A stretch of DNA of 64,000 nt. Source: Terriglobia bacterium (GTDB lineage Bacteria; Acidobacteriota; Terriglobia; Acidiferrales; UBA7541). Each line of letters opens with the position of its first letter. The stretch's first letter is position 1. This document shows positions 2-37,978 of this stretch, piece by piece. The DNA lies in NCBI GenBank assembly GCA_963695545.1, contig OY968796.1:3808001-3872000 (forward strand), read 5' to 3'. The position numbers and the translations under genes are program-made. The notes beneath the pieces were generated by a model. That model saw only the letters and a list, made by a program, of their open reading frames with translations. It was not told the origin of the DNA and did not search any database.

Positions 2-949
2 GCGCCGGCGCCGGCCGCGGCCAGCCCGGTTGACAACGACATCATCTCCATGCTGCCGAAGGACGCGGGCGAGGTAGCTTACGCGAATTTGAAAGCGGCT
101 CGGCAATATCCCTGGTTTGAGCAATTGAAGGAACAAATGCTGCCGGCACGCTTCAAACAATTTGAGGCTTTTCTGGCCGCCGCGGGGATTGACCCGAATA
201 CGCAAGTTGAGGAATTGACGTGGGCGCTGGTGCCGAACATGCCGGCGAACGCGACGGCGACCTCCGTGCCGTCGAGCGAAGAAGTTGTGGGTATCGCGCA
301 AGGCCAATTCCAGCCGGATACGGCGGAGGCTTATTTTCTATCGAAAAAAGTGCCGACGGTGAAGATCCGCGACTTCACGCTTTATTCGTTTGGTTCGGGC
401 AGCGGACCGGGCGATCTTTTTCTTTTTTTCCTGGACACCAATACCGCGGTATTCGGGCAGCGCAAGCAGCTCGAGGAATTGATCAGCGTGCGCTACGGCG
501 AGGCGCAAGGCTTGATGGCGAATGCCGATCTGTCCGCGCTGGTGAATGACGCGAATGGCAGCGGATTGGTGTGGGCCGTGCTCGATCCGGCGTACACGCG
601 GCTCGCGATTCAGCAACTGGCGGGCGGCGCGGCGCAATTTTCGCAAGCCAGCCAGGTGATCGCGCAATTGAAATCGATGATCGTGAGCTTTGACGCGGAT
701 TCCGGAATCCAGGTCCATTTCCAGGCGGTGTGTACCACCTCGGATGCGGCCAACACTTTTGCGGCGCTGCTGCAGGCGGGATTGCTGTTGCAAAAATATC
801 AGGCGCAGCAAACGAATCCGGATTTGGCCGCGCTGCTGGATGAAACGCAAATCTCTCCGAATGGCGATCGGCTGGATATTCGGCTAAGCCTCACGGACGA
901 TCAAGTGGTCGCGCTGATCCGGCGGAACACGTTCGCGATGGGGCTGTGA
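2..949 (+). CDS. Hypothetical, probably exported protein (5' partial)
   Basis: The frame of the 50..949 ORF stays open to the window edge (APAPAAASPVDNDIISM..., resembling the end of a signal peptide). Codon usage is coding-like. Confidence 0.7.
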   Translation, partial: APAPAAASPVDNDIISMLPKDAGEVAYANLKAARQYPWFEQLKEQMLPARFKQFEAFLAAAGIDPNTQVEELTWALVPNMPANATATSVPSSEEVVGIAQGQFQPDTAEAYFLSKKVPTVKIRDFTLYSFGSGSGPGDLFLFFLDTNTAVFGQRKQLEELISVRYGEAQGLMANADLSALVNDANGSGLVWAVLDPAYTRLAIQQLAGGAAQFSQASQVIAQLKSMIVSFDADSGIQVHFQAVCTTSDAANTFAALLQAGLLLQKYQAQQTNPDLAALLDETQISPNGDRLDIRLSLTDDQVVALIRRNTFAMGL

Positions 950-1075
950 AGATCGCGCGCGTCGAGCGTCAGCGTTGTTGGGGCGATGCGCTGAAATTTT
1001 CGGGTGAAGTTGTGGGCGTGCGTTGCGGGCGCTCTTCAGGCGCTCGGTAATTCCCATTCAAGCGATATTTGCGGA

Positions 1076-1252
1076 TCACAAAGCGCCGCTGGTTGCGAGC
1101 GGCACTTCGCATGCCTCGCGGCAGTCCGGACAATAATATTGACCGTCGGCGGCGAGGCGAATGTTGTATTGCCCCTGGCAATAGCAACAGTAGCGATCGC
1201 ATTGGCACTCGTGTTCGGTCTTTTCGCAGGACGCGCAAAGAGTATCGGGCAT
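1076..1252 (-). CDS. Small Cys-rich putative metal-binding protein, 58 aa
   Basis: MPDTLCASCEKTEHECQCDRYCCYCQGQYNIRLAADGQYYCPDCREACEVPLATSGAL has 10 Cys. A GAGAGG SD and a TATAGT -10-like box lie upstream. It is hidden at the end of shadow ORF 1076..2719. Confidence 0.75.
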   Translation of the reverse strand: MPDTLCASCEKTEHECQCDRYCCYCQGQYNIRLAADGQYYCPDCREACEVPLATSGAL

Positions 1253-1329
1253 GGCCGCCTCTCTACTTTCACTATAATCCGCGCAGACATGGCCGACAAG
1301 ATGGCGTGACGCAAACGTGACCTCGCGCG

Positions 1330-2916
1330 CTATTTCGCTGCGCCGGCCGCTCCACTCGCGCCTGGAGCGCCACCCGCATCTGCGCCGGCAGCGAACAGCT
1401 CTACGGTGATCTTCGGAAAATCCTTTTCGTCGGCTAAATGACGCCCTTTCCCGTAGACGGCGTTGAGCTCGAGCGTGGTGCGGTCGAATTCGCCATTCGG
1501 CAAACGATTCCAATAGTCTACGATCCAGACGCGATCGGGCGCGGGACGCGCATCGCTTAAAACTTCTCCGAGCGGCGCGACCATAAAATCCTGATAAACC
1601 AATTGCGCGCCGCCGGGCGCATCGAGAACCGTCGGGCCCGCGGGAATCGGATTGCGCTGCGATCTGTAATATTCGTAGGGCAAGCGGCCGAGCGGTGTGA
1701 AGAAAATTGCGTCGCCAGGCTGGGCGCGATCGAGAATGTACGCTGTGGCGGAGCGCCAGTCTTCGGCGTACATCTGTGAACCGTGATGGAGGTACGCTCG
1801 TGTGGGCACGAACGTGAGAACGGAAATCACGGCCGCGAAGGCCCAAGCCAGCGCTTTCGGGCGCACGCGCACAATTCCGGCGGCGACACCCAGCATCATC
1901 GCGGGCAAGCAAACAATTAAATAGCGATCCACAAAGAAGGGCCGGACGAACGACGCTGCAATCGTCAGGACAACCGGCACGAAGAGCCAAGAGAAAATCA
2001 GCGCGAAGGGCCATCCGGCGTTTTCGGGCGCGCGATCGACGGAGCGGCGCGCCCGCCACGCGGCGAATCCGGCGATGGCGAATGCAAGCGCGTCCAGCGC
2101 GAGAAGCCACTTGCTGCCATAGCCGGCCAATCCATTGAAGAAATTTAGAACGATGGCTGGCGAAGTGCGCGGAATCCAATCGACGGGCGTTCCGCCGATT
2201 CTCGCGGCGACGATGGCGAGCGGCAGCGTGATGTATACAATCCACCGGACGCTGCGCGCGTAGTCGCGCCATGCGAAATCGCGTCCGCGCAGCGACACAA
2301 GCGATGCGCCTTGCGCTACGATCACGAGCGCCGCGAAAAAATGGGCGTAGATCGCGAGCGCGCTCACAATCGCGTAGCTCATCCAGCGCGCCGCGGCCGG
2401 CTCCTGAAGATTGCGCAGCAGGAGCAACGTCGAAAGCGTCACCAGAAAAACAACCAACGCATAACTGCGCGCCTCCTGCGAATAGGAAACGTGGAACGCA
2501 TTGATCGCGAGCAACCACGCGGCGATCAATCCGACGGCGGTGCCGAAGAGGCGGCGGCCGAGCGCGTAGATCACTGGCAGTGTGGCCACCGCGAACACCA
2601 CGGAGAGGCTGCGAACGAACGCTTCGCTGCTGCCGAATTTCATCCAATAGTGCAGCAGCACGTAATACAACGCCATATTCGCTTCGCGATGCCAGAGCAC
2701 GCGGGAGAATTGCGACCATCGCAGGCGCGCGAGCTCCGCGCTGACGGCCTCATCGAGCCAAAAACTTTTCGCGGCGAGAAAACGAAAACGCAAATGCGCG
2801 GCGATTACCACGATCAGTGCGAGCCAAGTCCGGCGAAGCAGCGGGCGGGAATCCAATTCGGAAATATTGGCGGGCGCGGGCGCGGGATTCGGCGCGGAAT
2901 GCGTTTCATTCATCAT
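1330..2916 (-). CDS. GT-C fold membrane glycosyltransferase (GT39/PMT-like)
   Basis: SFWLDE motif, 'PLYY'-like MALYYVLL, RSLS, YSQEARSYAL and multiple TM helices. A TGtTAGAAT box lies 8 nt before the ATG. Confidence 0.85.
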   Translation of the reverse strand: MMNETHSAPNPAPAPANISELDSRPLLRRTWLALIVVIAAHLRFRFLAAKSFWLDEAVSAELARLRWSQFSRVLWHREANMALYYVLLHYWMKFGSSEAFVRSLSVVFAVATLPVIYALGRRLFGTAVGLIAAWLLAINAFHVSYSQEARSYALVVFLVTLSTLLLLRNLQEPAAARWMSYAIVSALAIYAHFFAALVIVAQGASLVSLRGRDFAWRDYARSVRWIVYITLPLAIVAARIGGTPVDWIPRTSPAIVLNFFNGLAGYGSKWLLALDALAFAIAGFAAWRARRSVDRAPENAGWPFALIFSWLFVPVVLTIAASFVRPFFVDRYLIVCLPAMMLGVAAGIVRVRPKALAWAFAAVISVLTFVPTRAYLHHGSQMYAEDWRSATAYILDRAQPGDAIFFTPLGRLPYEYYRSQRNPIPAGPTVLDAPGGAQLVYQDFMVAPLGEVLSDARPAPDRVWIVDYWNRLPNGEFDRTTLELNAVYGKGRHLADEKDFPKITVELFAAGADAGGAPGASGAAGAAK

Positions 2917-3025
2917 GCGAGCGCATTCTAACATTCCGCACGCGCCCGCGGCGGCTTGACACTGGTTTATGGCGCATGCTACGGTCGATTGGTTCGTAAT
3001 TTTCCTTTGAAATTTGAGTCGCTGC

Positions 3026-28870: not shown

Positions 28871-28898
28871 AATTCTTACGTATTACATAATGGAAGCC

Positions 28899-30014
28899 AT
28901 GCGAAAAACTTTCCACCTCATCGCGCTCGTGATCTTCTCCGTCGGCGTCGCGTCCTTATCCGCGCACGCGCAGGGATTGCTGCCCGATTCGTTCGGCGGC
29001 TGGAGCGCCTCCTCCGCCACGCAGCGCTTGGATGCGCCTGCCGTCGAGCAGTCCGCCGGCTCCGACGCCGCCGTGCTTCAGGAATATCGCACCGAAGGCG
29101 CCGCGCGGCGTTCCTACGCGCGCGCCGGCGATTCCGTCTCGATCACGCTCTACCATCTGGGCGATCCCAGCGCCGCATACGGCCTCTACACTTTTTTGCG
29201 CTCCGACGCGCTCGCGCCGATCGCAGTCGGCTCGTTCGCCTCCGCCTCGCCCACTCGCGCGCTGATCGTAATTGGAAATCTGCTCGTCGACGTCGCCGCG
29301 CCCAAGCAACGCCCCAGCGACGCCGACCTCAAAGCCTTGGCGCAATTCCTCGCGCCGCAAGCCGACACTGCCCCGTTCCCCACCATCGCGGAATCTCTTC
29401 CGCAGCCCGGCCTGCTGCCCGACACGCAGCACTATTTCGTCGGCCCGCAAGCCCTATCGCGCGTCGTGCCCCTCGGCACCGACGACTGGGCCGGCTTCGA
29501 CTACAGCGCCGAAGCTCTCTCCGCGCGCTACCGCATGAACGCGAAAGACGACGCCGTTCTCCTGCTCATCTCCTACCCCACGCAGCAGATCGCCGCGAAA
29601 GAATTTGATGGCATGATGCGCCGCTTCCCGATTGACCCGCCCGGCGGCGCGCTCCCCGGACAATCCATCCTCTACGGCAGACGCGTCGGTCCGCTCGTCG
29701 CTCTCGTTGTCGGCGCGCCCACACGCGTCGCCGCCAATTCGCTCCTCGATCAAATCCACAGCAACGACGTCGTCACCTGGAACGAACCGAAAACCTCATA
29801 TACCGATCCCAGCATCGGCAGCATCGTCGTTGAAGGCATTCTGGGCACGGGCGCAATCATGCTGCTCGCCATCGCCGCGGGAATCGGATTCGGCGGTCTG
29901 CGCGTCGTCGTCAAATATTTTCTTCCCGGAAAGGTTTTCGACCGCGAAAAGCAAATGGAAGTCCTGCAGCTCGGAATTTCCAGCAAACCCATTCGTGCCA
30001 AGGATTTCTACTGA
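28899..30014 (+). CDS. DUF6599-like exported protein with C-terminal TM helix
   Basis: Signal peptide; DPSAAYGLYT, LLLISYPTQQIA; C-terminal TM helix. ATG 28899 is 7 nt after CATAAT; alternative start 28890. Confidence 0.75.
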   Translation: MRKTFHLIALVIFSVGVASLSAHAQGLLPDSFGGWSASSATQRLDAPAVEQSAGSDAAVLQEYRTEGAARRSYARAGDSVSITLYHLGDPSAAYGLYTFLRSDALAPIAVGSFASASPTRALIVIGNLLVDVAAPKQRPSDADLKALAQFLAPQADTAPFPTIAESLPQPGLLPDTQHYFVGPQALSRVVPLGTDDWAGFDYSAEALSARYRMNAKDDAVLLLISYPTQQIAAKEFDGMMRRFPIDPPGGALPGQSILYGRRVGPLVALVVGAPTRVAANSLLDQIHSNDVVTWNEPKTSYTDPSIGSIVVEGILGTGAIMLLAIAAGIGFGGLRVVVKYFLPGKVFDREKQMEVLQLGISSKPIRAKDFY

Positions 30015-30260: not shown

Positions 30261-30655
30261 AACGTTGCCTCCGCAATCTCAACTCAACGCCGCTCCCCCA
30301 CGGTCGCTCTGCTCTTCGCGCCACCTGTTCCGCCCTGTACCGCCGTACAACTTGTCGTTTGACGTTGAAACGCGCAAGCTACCATCGCGTCCAAGCTCGC
30401 GCGTCCGGATCCGCGCGATAAGCAACCGGCCCCGCGCGCGGCGCATCGGAATCTGTTATGCAGGCCGCCTCGCGGGTAAGGGACAGTCGATCAGGCAAAG
30501 TTTCGGCGCGCATTCTAGACTGCGTTGGCCTTTGAATCACACAACGCGTGAGGCGTCCCGGAGTTCAACTCAGTCGCGTGCTAGCATCATCGCCATGCTG
30601 TCCGGCACGTATAAATTGGTTATCATTCAACTGCGCTTCCCCGCAAGGTGATCCC

Positions 30656-33600
30656 ATGACCCCAGCTTCTCGCTCCACACTGCGGAGCCGGCTTTTGTCG
30701 GTTCTCGGCATCGCATCGATCGCCGTTCTGGGCGCAATCTCCGCCGGCGCGCAAGCGCCCGCCGTGCAATCCCGCATCACGCAGCTGATCGACGAAAATA
30801 ATCTCGTCACCCTGCACGGCAACACGCATCCCTTGGCCCGCGCTCAATATGACCAGGGCGCCGCGCCCGATAATCTGCCGACCGATCGCATCTTGCTCAT
30901 GTTGCAACGCAGCCCCGCGCAGGAAACCGCATTGCAGCAATTGCTCGAGGGCCAGAAATCAAAATCTTCGCCGTACTACCATCAGTGGCTCACGCCCACC
31001 CAATTCGGCCAGCAGTTCGGCGCCTCCGACTCCGACATTCAAACTATCACCTCGTGGCTCGAGGCGCATGGATTCACGGTGAACAGCGTTTCCCCTGGCC
31101 GCACGGTGATCGACTTTTCCGGCAACGCCGGCCTGGTGCGCGCGGCATTCCACACCGAGATTCACAAGTACGTCGTGAACGGCGAATCGCATTGGGCCAA
31201 CAACGCCGACCCGCAAATCCCCGCCGCGCTCGCGCCGGTGATCGCCGGCCTGGTCTCCCTGAACAATTTCAAGAAGAAGCCGATGTACAAAATCACCGCT
31301 CATCCACTCTCGCCAGCCACGACGAACCCGATAACTCTTGAGACCGAAGCCGGCCAGTGCACGACATCCCTCGGCGCGACCGTTACTTGCTACGCAGTCG
31401 CCCCGGCGGATTTTGCAACGATCTATAATTCGGAACCGCTCTGGAGCGCCGGAATCGACGGCACCGGCCAGACCATCGCGATCGTCGGCGAAACCGACAT
31501 CAACTGCCAGGACATCATCAATTTCCGCTCCTTCTATGGCCTCTCAACTACATTCCCCGACGACTGCGGGCCCAACTCAAACGTACAAATCATCCTCGAC
31601 GGCCCCGATCCCGGCTATCAGGAAGATGAAACCGAAGCCGATCTCGACGTCGAATGGTCCGGTGCGGTCGCCAAAGGCGCGCACATTGATTTCGTCGAAT
31701 CCGAAAGCACCGAAACGACTCAGGGAATCGATCTCTCCGCCGAATATATCGTGAACAACAATCTCGCCCCGGTGATGAGCGAGAGCTACGGTGAATGCGA
31801 GGCGTTCCTGCTGACAGCCGGAAATCAGTTTTACAACGCTCTTTGGGAACAGGCGGCCGCCCAAGGAATAACCGTGATTACGTCCGCAGGCGACAGCGGC
31901 TCGGCCGGATGCGACGATGACAACTCCGTCCTCTTCGCGCAGGAGGGCGCTAACGTCAGTGGCCTGAACTCCACACCGTATAACGTGTCGGCTGGCGGGA
32001 CGGATTTCAATTACGTAAGCAACCCAGCGACGTCATACTGGAATGCCGGCAATTCCACCATCTCGACAGGCCAGACCCAGGAATCCGCGAAAGGGTACAT
32101 ACCAGAAATTCCGTGGGACGACTCCTGCGCCGCAAGCGGCGTGGTTACCGCCTGCAGTAACCAATCCATCGATCAAGAAGCATTCGTCACCGGCGGATTG
32201 AACATCGTGGCCGCCGGCGGCGGCGAAAGCAACTGCGTTTTATCCGTCGTCGAGGGGGAGATTGTCAATTGTGACGCCAGCACCGCTTTTCCCAACGGGG
32301 GATATCCAAAGCCCGCTTGGCAAAGCGGAAGCGCGGTCACCGGCCTCGCCAGCACCGACGGGGTGCGCGACGTTCCCGACATCTCTCTTTATGCCGCCGC
32401 GGAGTCGGCCAGTAACTCCTTCTATCCGATTTGCGAATCCGACCTGAATACGAACAACGCGGAGTGCACCTCGTTCAGTTTGTTTGCCGGCGTCGGGGGA
32501 ACGTCCTCGTCCGCGCCCGCTTTTGCCGGCATTATGGCCATGATCAACCAATATACATCGACCACCCCCGCGCCACTCGCAGCTCCCGTTCTGCGTCAGG
32601 GCAACGCCAACTATGAACTGTACGCACTCGCGTCGAAACAGGTGACGGCTGCCACGAGTTGCACTTCAGATTCGAATCCCAACACGGCGGACACTTCCGG
32701 TTGCACGTTCTACGACATCAACTCAGGTAGCAACTCCGTTCCTTGCGAGGGAGACTCGTTCGGTTGCAGCAATACCAGCGAGACGTCAACGAACGCCGGC
32801 GTTGTAGAGCAGTCGGTCAGCTTGACGAACGGCGCTCCGGATGGAACCGTGGCTTGGGTGGCGAGCGCGGGATACGACCTAGCTACGGGCCTGGGCTCGG
32901 TCAACGTGTATAACCTGGTGCACAACTGGCCCGCCGTTGTCGGCGCCTTCCATTCAACGTCGTCAACATTGAAACTCTGCACGGGAGGAACCGCGGTCTG
33001 CCAGCCGGGCGACAGCCCCACCGCTCTCAGCTTTGTGCACGGCACAACAGTAACCGTCGATATCGGCGTTTCCTCCGGGAGCGGCACCCCGACGGGGAAT
33101 GCTGCAATCATCGGATCGCCGAACCCGCTTTCTAACACGAACGGCAACTTCGCCATGGGCACCACCGCCGCCGTGGATATCTTCCATCTCACCTCCACCG
33201 GCGCCCTCAACATCGATGCGTATCCTCTGACCAACGGGGCCGCCACCGGCACCACCGTCTACCTCCCCGGCGGAAGCTACGCCATCAACACGCACTACAC
33301 CGGCGATGGTACTTTTGGCGCCAGCGATTCCGCCGCAGTCACCGTAAACATATCTGCCGAAAACAGCACAGCGACTCTTGCAGCTTCCGAGTACAACCCT
33401 GTGGAACAGGAATTCGTGGCCCTCCCGGCCTCAGTTCCTTACGGCACCGCCGAAATATTCCGCCTCGATGTCTTCGGCACTTCTGGCACTTCGACTACTC
33501 ATCCGGAAACCGCCACGGGGGCCGTATTGTTCACCGACGAGGGAACTCCAATTTCGCAAACGTCCGTGAACGGCGGCGCTAACGAGGCGTTTACTCTGAA

Positions 33601-35029
33601 CTCGGAGGGCTATGCCGAGGTCCAAACTCCGGTGTACGGGCTCTTCAACAACACCACGCTGCAATCCGGGTATGTGATCCAACCGCTCACCGTTGGCGCC
33701 CACAGCATTCAAGCGAGCTACCTCGGAGCCCAATCATCTTTCAACGGCGCGGGAACTGCCGGCGACTCAAGCTACAACCAGAGCCAGACCTCGGCGGTTG
33801 CCGTCAACGTGACAAAGGGATCGACCGTGATCGCCGATGCGCCGGCCGCTCCCACGCCTCCATGCACCACCAGCGAGCCATCCACTTTCACGCTAGGTAG
33901 CAGCGTGACCATCGCCGCCCTCGTCGAGACGACCAGCTACGCCAACGTCCCCACCGGATCCGTAACGTTCGCTTCAACGCGCGGCGAGAACCTAAGTTTC
34001 GTTACCGCCACGCCGTTCTACGATCCGAACTACGGCTTTTCCGAGTTGTGCGCCAGCGTCACCTACACTCCCACAGGCACCGAGACGATCACCGCGAACT
34101 ATATTGGCGACACCAATTACCTCGCTCCCTCCGCGGCTGCCACCACGACAATCACCTCCGGCAGCGTCGCCTCCGCAACGAACTCCACCGTGACCGCGAG
34201 CCCGACATCGATCGCCGCGAACGGCACGACGACCTCGACCATCACCGTCACTCTCAAGGACGTGAACAGCAACCCGGTCAGCGGCAAGACCGTCACCTTG
34301 GCGGGAACCGGTAGCTCGTCCATCTCCGCTGCCAGCGGCACGTCCAGCTCCAGCGGCGTCGTCACATTCACCGTTAAGGATTCTCTCCCCGAAACGGACA
34401 CCTATACCGCCGCCGACACCACTGACGACATCACGCTCACGCACACCGCTTCGGTAACCTTCACCGCCACCTACGCGATCACTTCGGCGAACAGCACCTC
34501 TGGCACCGCCGTGCCGATCAGCACGCAAGGTGGCTCCGGCTCCGCAACGCTCGGGGTCACTCTCGCTGCGGGCACCACGTCGGTCACGCTTTCGTTCGTC
34601 CTGGATACGTCTCCGGCAAATGCGGTCGATTTGCCGACTTGCAGCCTCTCGCCGAATCCCGATACGACGGCGGGGACCAGCAACGTGATGATGATGTGTA
34701 ACACCACCGCGGCGCACGTTCCGCCGATGCCGGCGGTCGGTCCGAAAGTGCACGGCACACCTCTTGTGCCGGCCCTCGCAGCGCTCGCGGCTCTGCTGGC
34801 GATTCTGATTTTGCTCGCCTTGCCCGAGCGGCGTCGCGGCTACGCGCTTCTGGTTCTCTTGCTCGTCGTCGCGGTCGGAGCAGTCGTGGCCTGCGGCGGT
34901 GGTGGCAGCAGCGGCGGCGGAGGAGGCGGTGGCGGCGGAGCTACCGGAACCACAATCGGCCTCTACGAATACACCGTCAGCGGAGGCGCAGGCGGACAAC
35001 CAGTGATCGTCTGGTTCAACGTCGAATAA
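30656..35029 (+). CDS. S53 (sedolisin/kumamolisin) protease with pro-domain, Ig-like repeats and C-terminal membrane/lipobox module
   Basis: Pro-domain YHQWLTPTQFGQQFG; catalytic EADLD, SAGDSG and GGTSSSAP; GYDLATGLGS; Thr/Ser-rich Ig repeats including a Big_1-like ITVTLKDVNSNPVSG. Confidence 0.92.
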   Translation: MTPASRSTLRSRLLSVLGIASIAVLGAISAGAQAPAVQSRITQLIDENNLVTLHGNTHPLARAQYDQGAAPDNLPTDRILLMLQRSPAQETALQQLLEGQKSKSSPYYHQWLTPTQFGQQFGASDSDIQTITSWLEAHGFTVNSVSPGRTVIDFSGNAGLVRAAFHTEIHKYVVNGESHWANNADPQIPAALAPVIAGLVSLNNFKKKPMYKITAHPLSPATTNPITLETEAGQCTTSLGATVTCYAVAPADFATIYNSEPLWSAGIDGTGQTIAIVGETDINCQDIINFRSFYGLSTTFPDDCGPNSNVQIILDGPDPGYQEDETEADLDVEWSGAVAKGAHIDFVESESTETTQGIDLSAEYIVNNNLAPVMSESYGECEAFLLTAGNQFYNALWEQAAAQGITVITSAGDSGSAGCDDDNSVLFAQEGANVSGLNSTPYNVSAGGTDFNYVSNPATSYWNAGNSTISTGQTQESAKGYIPEIPWDDSCAASGVVTACSNQSIDQEAFVTGGLNIVAAGGGESNCVLSVVEGEIVNCDASTAFPNGGYPKPAWQSGSAVTGLASTDGVRDVPDISLYAAAESASNSFYPICESDLNTNNAECTSFSLFAGVGGTSSSAPAFAGIMAMINQYTSTTPAPLAAPVLRQGNANYELYALASKQVTAATSCTSDSNPNTADTSGCTFYDINSGSNSVPCEGDSFGCSNTSETSTNAGVVEQSVSLTNGAPDGTVAWVASAGYDLATGLGSVNVYNLVHNWPAVVGAFHSTSSTLKLCTGGTAVCQPGDSPTALSFVHGTTVTVDIGVSSGSGTPTGNAAIIGSPNPLSNTNGNFAMGTTAAVDIFHLTSTGALNIDAYPLTNGAATGTTVYLPGGSYAINTHYTGDGTFGASDSAAVTVNISAENSTATLAASEYNPVEQEFVALPASVPYGTAEIFRLDVFGTSGTSTTHPETATGAVLFTDEGTPISQTSVNGGANEAFTLNSEGYAEVQTPVYGLFNNTTLQSGYVIQPLTVGAHSIQASYLGAQSSFNGAGTAGDSSYNQSQTSAVAVNVTKGSTVIADAPAAPTPPCTTSEPSTFTLGSSVTIAALVETTSYANVPTGSVTFASTRGENLSFVTATPFYDPNYGFSELCASVTYTPTGTETITANYIGDTNYLAPSAAATTTITSGSVASATNSTVTASPTSIAANGTTTSTITVTLKDVNSNPVSGKTVTLAGTGSSSISAASGTSSSSGVVTFTVKDSLPETDTYTAADTTDDITLTHTASVTFTATYAITSANSTSGTAVPISTQGGSGSATLGVTLAAGTTSVTLSFVLDTSPANAVDLPTCSLSPNPDTTAGTSNVMMMCNTTAAHVPPMPAVGPKVHGTPLVPALAALAALLAILILLALPERRRGYALLVLLLVVAVGAVVACGGGGSSGGGGGGGGGATGTTIGLYEYTVSGGAGGQPVIVWFNVE

Positions 35030-35044
35030 CCGACTCAACAGCGG

Positions 35045-35087
35045 AAAAAGCCCGCGCGTCTAAGAAGCGCGCGGGCTTTTTCATTTT
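35045..35087 (+). terminator. Bidirectional Rho-independent terminator
   Basis: AAAAAGCCCGCGCG ... CGCGCGGGCTTTTT. Confidence 0.85.
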
Positions 35088-35313: not shown

Positions 35314-35847
35314 ATGAAACTGAAATTCGCATTGGCATTTGCAGTTCTGTCGTTGAGTGTAAGTGTAGCGCGGGCCGATCAAGTCAGCGACGGCGGCTAT
35401 TCATTCATCATCCCCGACGGCAGTACAGTAACGGGCCTTACGCAGTCAGCGCCCATCGAAGATGTTGGCCCGGCCTACATTCTGAGTTATTCCTTCGCGG
35501 ACGGCACCGGCTCTACTTCCTTCAACTGGTACTTTGGAAGCTGGGGCGAAATCCTGTTCTCCACGCCGGTTTCCGATTTGTCGTTTGACTATGAAAATGG
35601 GGGCGGCTCCTTCATCGACGTCTCTGACAACGCGGGCGATGGCCTCTATTCCTTGGACGAGTCCGGCGCCGACACTTTCGAAGGAACGGGCATCACAGAG
35701 CTCCAATGGTCCGGCCCGCTAGACGGCGGAATCACCGCGATATGCTACACGACACCCGAGCCGAGCTCTCTTCTTCTGCTGGCTTTAGGACTTATCGGGC
35801 TGGGCGGCCTTGTCCGTCGCCTGTCTCGCAGGGAGTCATCCATATAA
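35314..35847 (+). CDS. PEP-CTERM sorting domain protein
   Basis: GAGGTG SD; signal peptide ending ARAD; C-terminus TPEPSSLLLLALGLIGLGGLVRRLSRR. Confidence 0.9.
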   Translation: MKLKFALAFAVLSLSVSVARADQVSDGGYSFIIPDGSTVTGLTQSAPIEDVGPAYILSYSFADGTGSTSFNWYFGSWGEILFSTPVSDLSFDYENGGGSFIDVSDNAGDGLYSLDESGADTFEGTGITELQWSGPLDGGITAICYTTPEPSSLLLLALGLIGLGGLVRRLSRRESSI

Positions 35848-35914
35848 TTCCCATTGGTGCCTCTAGACAGAACAGCGAGTTTGCGCTATGCTTATGTATG
35901 TCAGCCGACAAAAT

Positions 35915-36211
35915 TTCGAATACTTCTCGGACGTCGCCGCGCCGTTCCTTTCCCAACGTAAATCGCCTCCCGCCCCACCATCCGGATTTTGCCCCTCTGA
36001 ACGACGAAATCATCAAGCCCTTTAGAATCAGCACTTCCAAGCATTTGCCGATATTCTGCATCTCGTTCATTCACAGTGGTTTGAACTCTACTAGAATCAA
36101 CACTTCTGAGAATAAGGACTTAAAGTCAATTAGAATCAACACTTCTGGGTATAAGGACTTAAAGTCGTTTAGAATCAGCACTTCCAAAAAACAGGGGGGG
36201 GGGAGGGGGGG
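35915..36211 (+). repeat. Dispersed non-coding element, copy A, with 39-bp tandem units
   Basis: TAGAATCA(A/G)CACTTC at 36023, 36092, 36131 and 36170; terminal AAAAAACA-polyG; TTCGAATACTTCT shared with copy B. Confidence 0.75.
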
Positions 36212-36257
36212 TGCTCCTAAACGTATGACAGCAAAGCCAGATAAGACGCGGGCATTC

Positions 36258-37286
36258 TCAAGTTCGCCAGTCCAGCACCACTTTCCCCGATTGCCCCGAG
36301 CGCAGCGCTGCGAAACCTTTCTCGTACTCCTGCCAAGGAAATCGGTGCGTGATCACCGGCGCGATATTCAATCCCGATTCGAGCATCACCGTCATCTTGT
36401 ACCAGGTCTCGTACATTTCGCGTCCGTAGATTCCCTTGATCGTGATCATATTGAAGATCACCTTCGTCCAATCAATGGCCATCTCGCCGGACGGAATTCC
36501 CAGCATCGCGATTTTTCCGCCGTGCGCCATGTTCGCCAGCATTTCGCGAAACGCCGCGGCATTTCCCGACATCTCGAGGCCGACGTCGAATCCTTCCACC
36601 ATGCCCAATCGTTTCTGCACCGCGCCCAGCGATTCCGCGCGCGCGTCGACCGCCGCGGTCACGCCGAATTTCCGCGCGAGTTCGAGTCGCGCCGGATTCA
36701 CGTCCGTCACGACCACGTAGCGCGCACCCGCGTGCCGCACCACCGCCGCGGCCATGATTCCAATCGGCCCCGCGCCGGTGATCAACACATCCTCGCCAAG
36801 CACCGGAAACGAAAGCGCCGTATGCACCGCATTGCCCAGCGGATCGAAAATCGCCGCAATTTCCAGCGGCACTTTCGCGCTGTGGCGCCACACGTTGCTC
36901 ATCGGCACCACCACGTACTCCGCGAACGCGCCCGCGCGCTGCACGCCCACGCCCTGCGCGTGCGCGCACAAGTGCCGCCGCCCCGCCAAACAATTCCGGC
37001 ACAGCCCGCACACCACGTGCCCTTCGCCGCTCACGATTTCGCCCGGTTTGAAATCGGCAACGTTCGATCCCGCTTCCACGATTTCGCCCACGAATTCATG
37101 ACCGATCACCAGCGGCACGCGGATCGTGGCCTTGGCCCAATCGTTCCATTCGTAAATGTGCAAATCGGTGCCGCAAATCCCCGTCATCATCACGCGAATC
37201 AATACGTCGTTGATTCCCGGCCGCGGCACCGGCACGTCTTCCAGCCACAGCCCCGGCTCCGCGCGGCTTTTCACCAGCGCTTTCAA
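36258..37286 (-). CDS. tdh: L-threonine 3-dehydrogenase
   Basis: [47 protein letters not shown]. Confidence 0.97.
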
Positions 37287-37405
37287 TTTTCGCCCCGCTG
37301 CATTAAAGTCTCCCTCGCCATTTCCGATTCAAGAGTAACAAGACATTGCGCCGAAGCACGCTTTCTTTTAGGATGCGCACATCTCGCTTGCCAAGGGGTG
37401 ATGCA

Positions 37406-37978
37406 ATGCCGATTCCTGCTCCGCTCTCGCGCGTTCCCGCGCGGAAAAAACGCGCGCCCATCGCCGCGCTCGTCGCAATGCTCTCCGCCGCTCTCGCCGT
37501 AGTGCTTCTCGCTGCCTCACCCGCGCGCGCGCAATTGCAACCCATGGGCGGGAGCGCGCAGGGCACGCCCGCGAAATCGTCTACATCCGCGCCCGCCGCG
37601 GCGCACAGCACGTCCAACTACGGCTCGGGAAGCGTTCGCGTTTTCATGAGCAACAGCGCCTCGTGGAAAAAAATTGGCGGATGGGGCCTCGCCGGCCAGT
37701 CAGAATCTGGCCGAGGCGATGCAGCCGACGCCGACGGCGTGAAAGCATTTGAAAAACATTGCTCACAATATCCGCTCACCAATGACAGAAACGCGGCCAG
37801 CTACGTGATCCTGCTCGATCAGCTGAACGAAAAAGCCCCGAAAAAAGGCCGCGACAAAATCACCGTCTACAATCGCGCCGGCATCGCGGTGTACGGCAAT
37901 TCGACGCGCCTGCTCGACGATTCGATCAAAGACGCCTGCCGCGCCATCGGCGGCGATCACAGCAAACATCACAAGTAG
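37406..37978 (+). CDS. Hypothetical secreted protein
   Basis: Signal peptide ending ARA-Q; Cys pair (KHC, DAC). Confidence 0.65.
   Translation: MPIPAPLSRVPARKKRAPIAALVAMLSAALAVVLLAASPARAQLQPMGGSAQGTPAKSSTSAPAAAHSTSNYGSGSVRVFMSNSASWKKIGGWGLAGQSESGRGDAADADGVKAFEKHCSQYPLTNDRNAASYVILLDQLNEKAPKKGRDKITVYNRAGIAVYGNSTRLLDDSIKDACRAIGGDHSKHHK

Follow-up and report, generated by a model that had tools for sequence, protein, structure and literature searches.

Classical bacterial lipoproteins, the substrates of Lgt, LspA and Lnt, are recognized by rules of the PROSITE PS51257 type: a basic n-region, an uncharged h-region and a lipobox, [LVI][ASTVI][GAS]C, whose cysteine lies in approximately the first 40 residues. 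The PEP-CTERM/exosortase, GlyGly-CTERM/rhombosortase, PGF-CTERM/archaeosortase and LPXTG/sortase systems use a C-terminal helix and a basic cluster, and the passenger becomes attached to the envelope by its C-terminus. In pili, immunoglobulin (Ig)-like folds are completed by strands of another chain: chaperone-usher systems employ donor strands, and type V pilins begin as lipoproteins. Here we describe the C-terminal tail of an S53 (sedolisin-type) protein encoded in the window, a 64,000-nucleotide stretch of the genome of a Terriglobia bacterium (contig OY968796.1, positions 3,808,001 to 3,872,000). The tail shares features with each of these systems and belongs, almost certainly, to a family that is already catalogued.

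A catalogued tail with an internal lipoprotein-like signal

The tail matches the NCBIfam model NF058595 ('invert_tail', lipo-invert putative C-terminal anchoring domain-containing protein). The score is 42.6 bits for the full-length protein and 45.9 bits for the isolated 189-residue piece, with a curated cut-off of 37 bits (NCBIfam release 20.0). The match covers residues 1344–1448 of the 1458 translated, that is, the extreme C-terminus. Tail and profile have the same order of elements: a transmembrane (TM) helix, a basic cluster, a second TM helix ending in [GSA]C, a Gly/Pro tether and C-terminal strands with the motif G-T-x-x-G-x-Y. The window copy differs in its pure Gly/Ser tether, and its own last strand, QPVIVWFNVE, lies outside the profile match. 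None of the 14 control genomes reached the cut-off. Judged by this comparison, the window tail is a real, somewhat divergent member of the lipo-invert kind, with anchoring as its putative function. The original prediction, made from the sequence alone, had presented an undescribed surface-anchoring system. The tail is already covered by NF058595, where it figures as a putative C-terminal anchor, so the claim of novelty does not stand; the layout of the tail that was predicted agrees residue for residue with the translation and the DNA.

All elements of the tail are encoded on the + strand. The first is the N-terminal part of an Ig-like domain (strands A to E, 34472..34702), which ends with ...NVMMMCN. 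It is composed of strands in an AlphaFold2 model and is matched by a hidden Markov model (HMM) of this half with an independent E-value (i-E) of 2.3e-7. A Pro-rich linker, TTAAHVPPMPAVGPKVHGTP (34703..34762), leads to TM1, LVPALAALAALLAILILLAL (34763..34822), a predicted stop-transfer helix. The proline directly before TM1, P101, is present in 31 of 33 aligned tails. The basic loop PERRRG (34823..34840) is predicted to be cytoplasmic and would double as the n-region of an internal lipoprotein signal. TM2, YALLVLLLVVAVGAVVA (34841..34891), would serve as the h-region of this signal, with the lipobox residues V-V-A at its end. The lipobox cysteine (TGC, 34892..34894) is the predicted diacylglyceryl site, and the predicted LspA cut falls directly before it. 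The 17-residue Gly/Ser tether GGGGSSGGGGGGGGGAT (34895..34945) connects the cysteine to GTTIGLYEYTVSGGAGGQPVIVWFNVE (34946..35026), which provides the split Ig-like domain with its final strands, F and G. These are again strands in the AlphaFold2 model and match an HMM of the C-terminal half (i-E 1.3e-6). The stop codon TAA follows at 35027-35029.

In its composition, the window copy agrees with the classical lipoprotein rule (ERRR, a 17-residue uncharged run and VVAC), and it shares with classical lipoproteins the basic n-region, the h-region, the lipobox VVA-C and the flexible tether. It fails the positional rule, as the cysteine lies far beyond the first ~40 residues: it is approximately residue 1413 of 1457, leaving 44 residues C-terminal to it. 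In contrast to classical lipoproteins, the signal is located ~1412 residues into the protein, after a stop-transfer helix, and processing would generate two chains, the lipid being carried by the small C-terminal one. In effect, the module would act as an N-terminal lipoprotein signal that has been transferred to the other end of the protein.

The tether is coded by a simple tract rich in GGC, GGT and GGA (34895-34945). In an orthologue from the same genus (locus L066, genome G002), the corresponding tract encodes 18 consecutive glycines, which suggests that the length of the tether may drift through repeat slippage.

The split domain and its conserved cysteine

An AlphaFold2 model of the 189-residue piece was built with alignment A1, which comprises the last 190 residues of 33 tails (the 30 best-scoring loci and the three copies of the window genome). 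The model has a mean predicted local distance difference test score (pLDDT) of 77.5. It contains strands at 5–81, helices at 102–120 (TM1) and 123–145 (TM2), and terminal strands at 167–174 and 182–188 with a pLDDT of 80–89, while the tether is disordered (pLDDT 49). When compared with 48161 solved chains, the model aligns from residue 1–4 to residue 189 with single Ig-like or PapD-like domains of ~100 residues, with 93–107 residues aligned. The matches include 8w01_A (Z 9.6), 8jmw_A, residues 594–700 (Z 9.1), and 1eut_A, residues 404–502 (Z 9.0); these Z values barely exceed the tool's 'common' level, indicating a generic Ig-like sandwich that is uninformative on function. Since the part before the linker provides only ~82 residues and 93–107 are aligned, the terminal strands must belong to the aligned sandwich. 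AlphaFold2 and VIA thus place them in one predicted ~100-residue sandwich with the upstream strands, the hairpin of TM1 and TM2 being looped out, which is the packing on the preceding domain that had been proposed for them. In this model, the last two strands, the pair with the G-T-x-x-G-x-Y motif, very probably complete the Ig-like fold begun by the strands upstream.

The split was followed with separate profiles for the part before the hairpin (N-half) and the part after the tether (C-half). In the window genome, both half-profiles match only the three tails, where they are 72–75 residues apart; this type of domain was not found there in unsplit form. An A1-profile search of 1.84 billion proteins gives a different picture. 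Its 150 best representatives contain 701 N-half/C-half pairs, and in 648 of these the halves follow directly on one another: a ...TLTV... strand leads directly into ...GTY...VT..., often in long arrays. The terminal strand pair forms the end of 59 of these 150 proteins, 22 of them with the hairpin and the others without it. Because the great majority of pairs are unsplit and the hairpin is found only in terminal copies, the hairpin is, by profile comparison, an insertion in the E–F loop of a widespread Ig-like domain, limited to its last copy. For the same reason, the numbers of matches in this search (35900, 21439 and 3493 at E <= 1e-3, 1e-10 and 1e-30, respectively) were rejected as tail counts: unsplit copies are widespread, and the matches are dominated by multi-repeat Ig proteins.

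The window genome, a single 4.16-Mb contig, contains three NF058595 matches above the cut-off, and a regular-expression scan of it revealed no further cassettes. The three carriers have unrelated passengers: the S53 protein, a 3002-residue giant with an NHL propeller and ASH/CFAP65-type Ig domains, and a 1234-residue lactonase-type propeller. Among 61 genomes (the window genome and 60 relatives), NF058595 matches at E <= 1e-4 in 48 and above the cut-off in 43. Within the window genome's own family, the model is matched in 35 of 36 genomes. In an even sample of the phylum, it is matched in 9 of 101 genomes (window genome counted). All but one of these are members of two families within the same class; in the remaining genome, only the strand part of the profile is matched. 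As far as NF058595 detects it, the tail appears to be frequent in a small number of Terriglobia families and was not detected elsewhere in the families sampled.

Five columns of A1 are invariant in 33/33 tails: the cysteine (C145), T82 at the start of the linker, G163, T164 and G167. The residue preceding the cysteine is G in 14, S in 10 and A in 9 tails, the residue following it (+2) is G in 24 of 33, and 34 to 50 residues remain C-terminal to it. To counter the bias towards top scorers, 19 of the lowest-scoring members listed above the cut-off were added, among them the window tail's orthologue L066; the hairpin and [GSA]C are present in 19/19. A third set was picked blind to the cysteine from the 150 best representatives of the A1-profile search, requiring the terminal strand pair, two hydrophobic runs and a net-basic loop, and [GSA]C is found in 22/22 of these tails. 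In total, 74/74 tails (33 + 19 + 22) have [GSA]C in the same layout of helix, basic loop and helix. The original prediction depended on the conservation of the cysteine in homologous tails, and the residue is retained in every one of the three sets (33/33, 19/19 and 22/22).

The surroundings of the cysteine are conserved in character as well. Of the 52 tails in the first two sets, 49 could be parsed. In these, the net charge of the loop is +2 to +9 (49/49), and the uncharged run before the cysteine has a median length of 18 residues (range 13–23). In the remaining three, a single acidic residue lies no more than 12 residues from the cysteine. A census of N-terminal lipoprotein-like starts in the window genome gave 111 candidates. 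These were not used as a control, as many are membrane-protein false positives, although some look real (...AGC-GGGS).

Proposed processing and competing explanations

We favor the reading, with a probability of roughly 0.6, that the window tail is a catalogued lipo-invert tail with a hairpin in the E–F loop, in which lipidation and a cut at the cysteine are predicted and the resulting lipopeptide completes the domain. The passenger would be exported via its N-terminal signal until TM1 halts transfer. The Arg cluster would remain in the cytoplasm and act as the n-region for TM2, which would re-export the tail and display VVA-C at the outer face of the membrane. There, Lgt would attach diacylglycerol to the cysteine, LspA would cut before it and Lnt would acylate the new N-terminus. 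Lipidation and cleavage would be the probable fate of the cysteine. They would yield a lipopeptide of 44 residues, which contributes strands F and G, and the two-chain domain would persist after the cut. Such a domain would resemble pilus strand complementation in that an Ig-like fold is completed by strands of another chain. It would differ from pili in that both parts derive from one precursor and complement each other after an internal cut, and no polymer is implied.

The window genome encodes one LspA, one Lgt and one Lnt above their cut-offs, together with LolA-family matches. No dedicated Lgt, LspA or Lnt paralogue was seen in it, and none is needed. The tail would rely on these single enzymes, and the idea of a sorting route distinct from that of N-terminal lipoproteins is not supported. 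The original picture, in which the lipopeptide tethers the protease, also appears incomplete. An LspA cut alone would leave TM1 and TM2 on the passenger, and would neither release it nor make the lipopeptide its only tether. The protease would then be held at the membrane by TM1 together with the lipid; should further cleavage within the Pro-rich linker take the hairpin away, the lipid would be its sole anchor. The latter outcome, tethering by the lipid only, is possible but doubtful.

Besides the retention of both helices after an LspA cut, several observations weigh against the favored reading. The strict lipobox [LVI][ASTVI][GAS]C is present in only 12 of the 33 A1 tails, position -3 often being T, Q or M; a looser PROSITE-like rule fits 21 of 33. 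The scarcity of strict lipoboxes speaks somewhat against canonical recognition. Most tails were collected with profiles that contain the cysteine column, and only the 22-tail set was picked without it. The AlphaFold2 model is moderate, with a predicted template modelling score (pTM) of 0.55, and describes the fold in cis only. The window copy is itself divergent, matching NF058595 over profile positions 2–101 of 113 only and exceeding the cut-off by 5–9 bits. Finally, full-text searches yielded no paper and no published experiment on the lipo-invert tail, and the NCBIfam curators themselves use the word 'putative'. A bioRxiv preprint with the phrase 'C-terminal lipoprotein signal' (10.1101/2022.09.15.508085) was set aside, as the phrase, where it occurs there, concerns an ordinary N-terminal signal.

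One alternative is a plain helical-hairpin anchor, which would hold the last Ig-like domain on the inner membrane with no cut, the cysteine being kept for another purpose, such as lipidation without cleavage or helix packing. Two helices are sufficient for anchoring, the canonical lipobox is confined to a minority of tails, and the modelled domain folds in cis with the hairpin looped out. However, the [GSA]-Cys pair is present in 74/74 tails. The basic n-region, the uncharged run of ~18 residues and the Gly-rich tether are specific marks of Lgt/LspA substrates that go beyond the needs of an anchor. We regard the plain anchor as unlikely.

The tail also resembles the C-terminal sorting systems, in having a C-terminal helix and a basic cluster on an exported protein and in its purpose. 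TM1 and the basic cluster could be an exosortase- or rhombosortase-type sorting signal that is cut by a dedicated enzyme, the remainder being a separate small lipoprotein. A helix followed by an Arg cluster is reminiscent of the tripartite C-terminal sorting signals. The next gene carries a PEP-CTERM signal (TIGR02595), which makes an exosortase system likely in this organism, although no search for the exosortase was made. There is in addition a weak match of the tail to midcut_by_XrtH (14.9 bits versus a cut-off of 45), which reflects the hydrophobic stretch. Yet the tail does not match PEP-CTERM (TIGR02595) or other sorting models at E <= 1, a conserved proline rather than a signature motif precedes TM1, and the split of the domain would be left unexplained. 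This makes a sorting signal quite improbable. Unlike those systems, the favored lipo-invert reading implies no dedicated enzyme, and its anchor would be non-covalent, by fold complementation instead of transpeptidation.

An artefact, in which a frameshift or assembly error joins the protease gene to that of a small lipoprotein located downstream, can practically be dismissed: the junction lies within a GC-rich, repeat-like stretch, but the arrangement is in frame and free of stops in 52/52 tails from 40 genomes (window copy counted), and both halves build one domain.

Carrier gene, related cassette and implications

The tail-bearing gene (30656..35029, + strand) encodes 1457 residues from its likely start, ATG at 30656; the longest open reading frame (ORF) at the locus spans 30548-35029 (+) and opens with GTG at 30548. 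The protein probably begins with a Sec-type signal peptide, MTPASRSTLRSRLLSVLGIASIAVLGAISAGAQA (30656..30757, +), which was read by eye from a basic n-region, a hydrophobic core and AGA-QA. Pfam identifies a Pro-kuma_activ domain (PF09286) at residues 79–206 (E 1.5e-27, 97 bits), with Big_3_5 and Big_1 Ig-like domains downstream of it. The first 762 residues match pro-kumamolisin (1t1e_A) over residues 80–472 (E 5.5e-15), and tripeptidyl-peptidase 1 was matched as well. With homology to both the activation and the catalytic domain, and with a signal-like N-terminus, the product is by these sequence features an exported S53 (sedolisin-type) protein. The whole protein as a query retrieved a single relative, from a Terriglobia metagenome-assembled genome (39% identity).

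Downstream of the stop codon, a terminator-like hairpin can be read from the sequence at 35050..35081 (+). It consists of GCCCGCGCG, a 9-nt loop and CGCGCGGGC, followed by TTTTT, with a 9-bp GC stem. The pattern scan for terminators had a loop limit of 8, and hence did not list it.

The next gene (35314-35847, +) encodes 177 residues with an N-terminal signal and a PEP-CTERM match (TIGR02595, 22.4 bits, cut-off 16). As it adjoins the gene with the invert tail, two different C-terminal anchoring signals stand side by side. Upstream, an ORF at 28890-30014 (+) encodes 374 residues, with an N-terminus that resembles a signal and a hydrophobic stretch close to the C-terminus; NCBIfam gave no match for it at E <= 0.01. 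Further downstream, a 598-residue, Arg/His-rich ORF (35706-37502, +) overlaps the L-threonine 3-dehydrogenase gene at 36258-37286 (-) (NF003808, 567 bits), and is most likely spurious.

A cassette of the same kind is present in a relative, genome G013 (contig C7), where three adjacent genes for exported proteins lie at L078:1-9196. One of them (3..2996, minus) encodes an S53 protein with Ig repeats. Another encodes a 1128-residue F510_1955-like glycosylhydrolase that combines a 'choice-of-anchor Z' repeat (NF058597) with a complete invert tail (75 bits). The third (L078:6875-9196, minus) encodes a 773-residue S53 protein in which the cassette interrupts the catalytic domain at its last loop: a hydrophobic helix, RKERR, a second helix ending in A-A-C, and GSGGG. 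The ~75 residues of the cassette are missing from 9/9 aligned S53 homologues. The conserved ...GYDRATGLGTVNAFNLVNNW comes after the cysteine, as do the last 30 conserved residues of the S53 domain. NF058595 scores 27.3 bits on this protein, below its cut-off. With the protein as a query, a full-length split S53 of this type was found in 1 of 61 genomes. Its AlphaFold2 model, built with a 10-row alignment, has a mean pLDDT of 39.2, too poor to judge the packing of the segment after the cysteine on the catalytic domain.

If the G013 case is real, it suggests that the cassette is not restricted to Ig domains. We would tentatively extend this to a portable 'split and lipidate' device, in which LspA makes two chains of one protein, joined by fold complementation only, and the lipidated mini-chain carries or holds the large passenger at the envelope. 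Bacteria would thereby gain a C-terminal lipid anchor made with the ordinary lipoprotein pathway. If this reading of G013 is true, the fold of an enzyme would itself be completed by a lipopeptide.

Taken alone, the window copy is a modest gain: it contributes one more divergent member and bears out what is implied by the catalogue entry. If the processing is confirmed, the tail would provide C-terminal protein anchoring by Lgt, LspA and Lnt alone, and a natural example of a cut domain that is kept together through strand complementation. The module could also be exploited in surface display, as a lipid tag for C-termini. Localization predictors that consider lipoboxes at the N-terminus only overlook tail-bearing proteins. 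Because many large hydrolases and adhesin-like proteins bear the tail, this has consequences for the interpretation of the surface and periplasmic proteome in soil Acidobacteriota.

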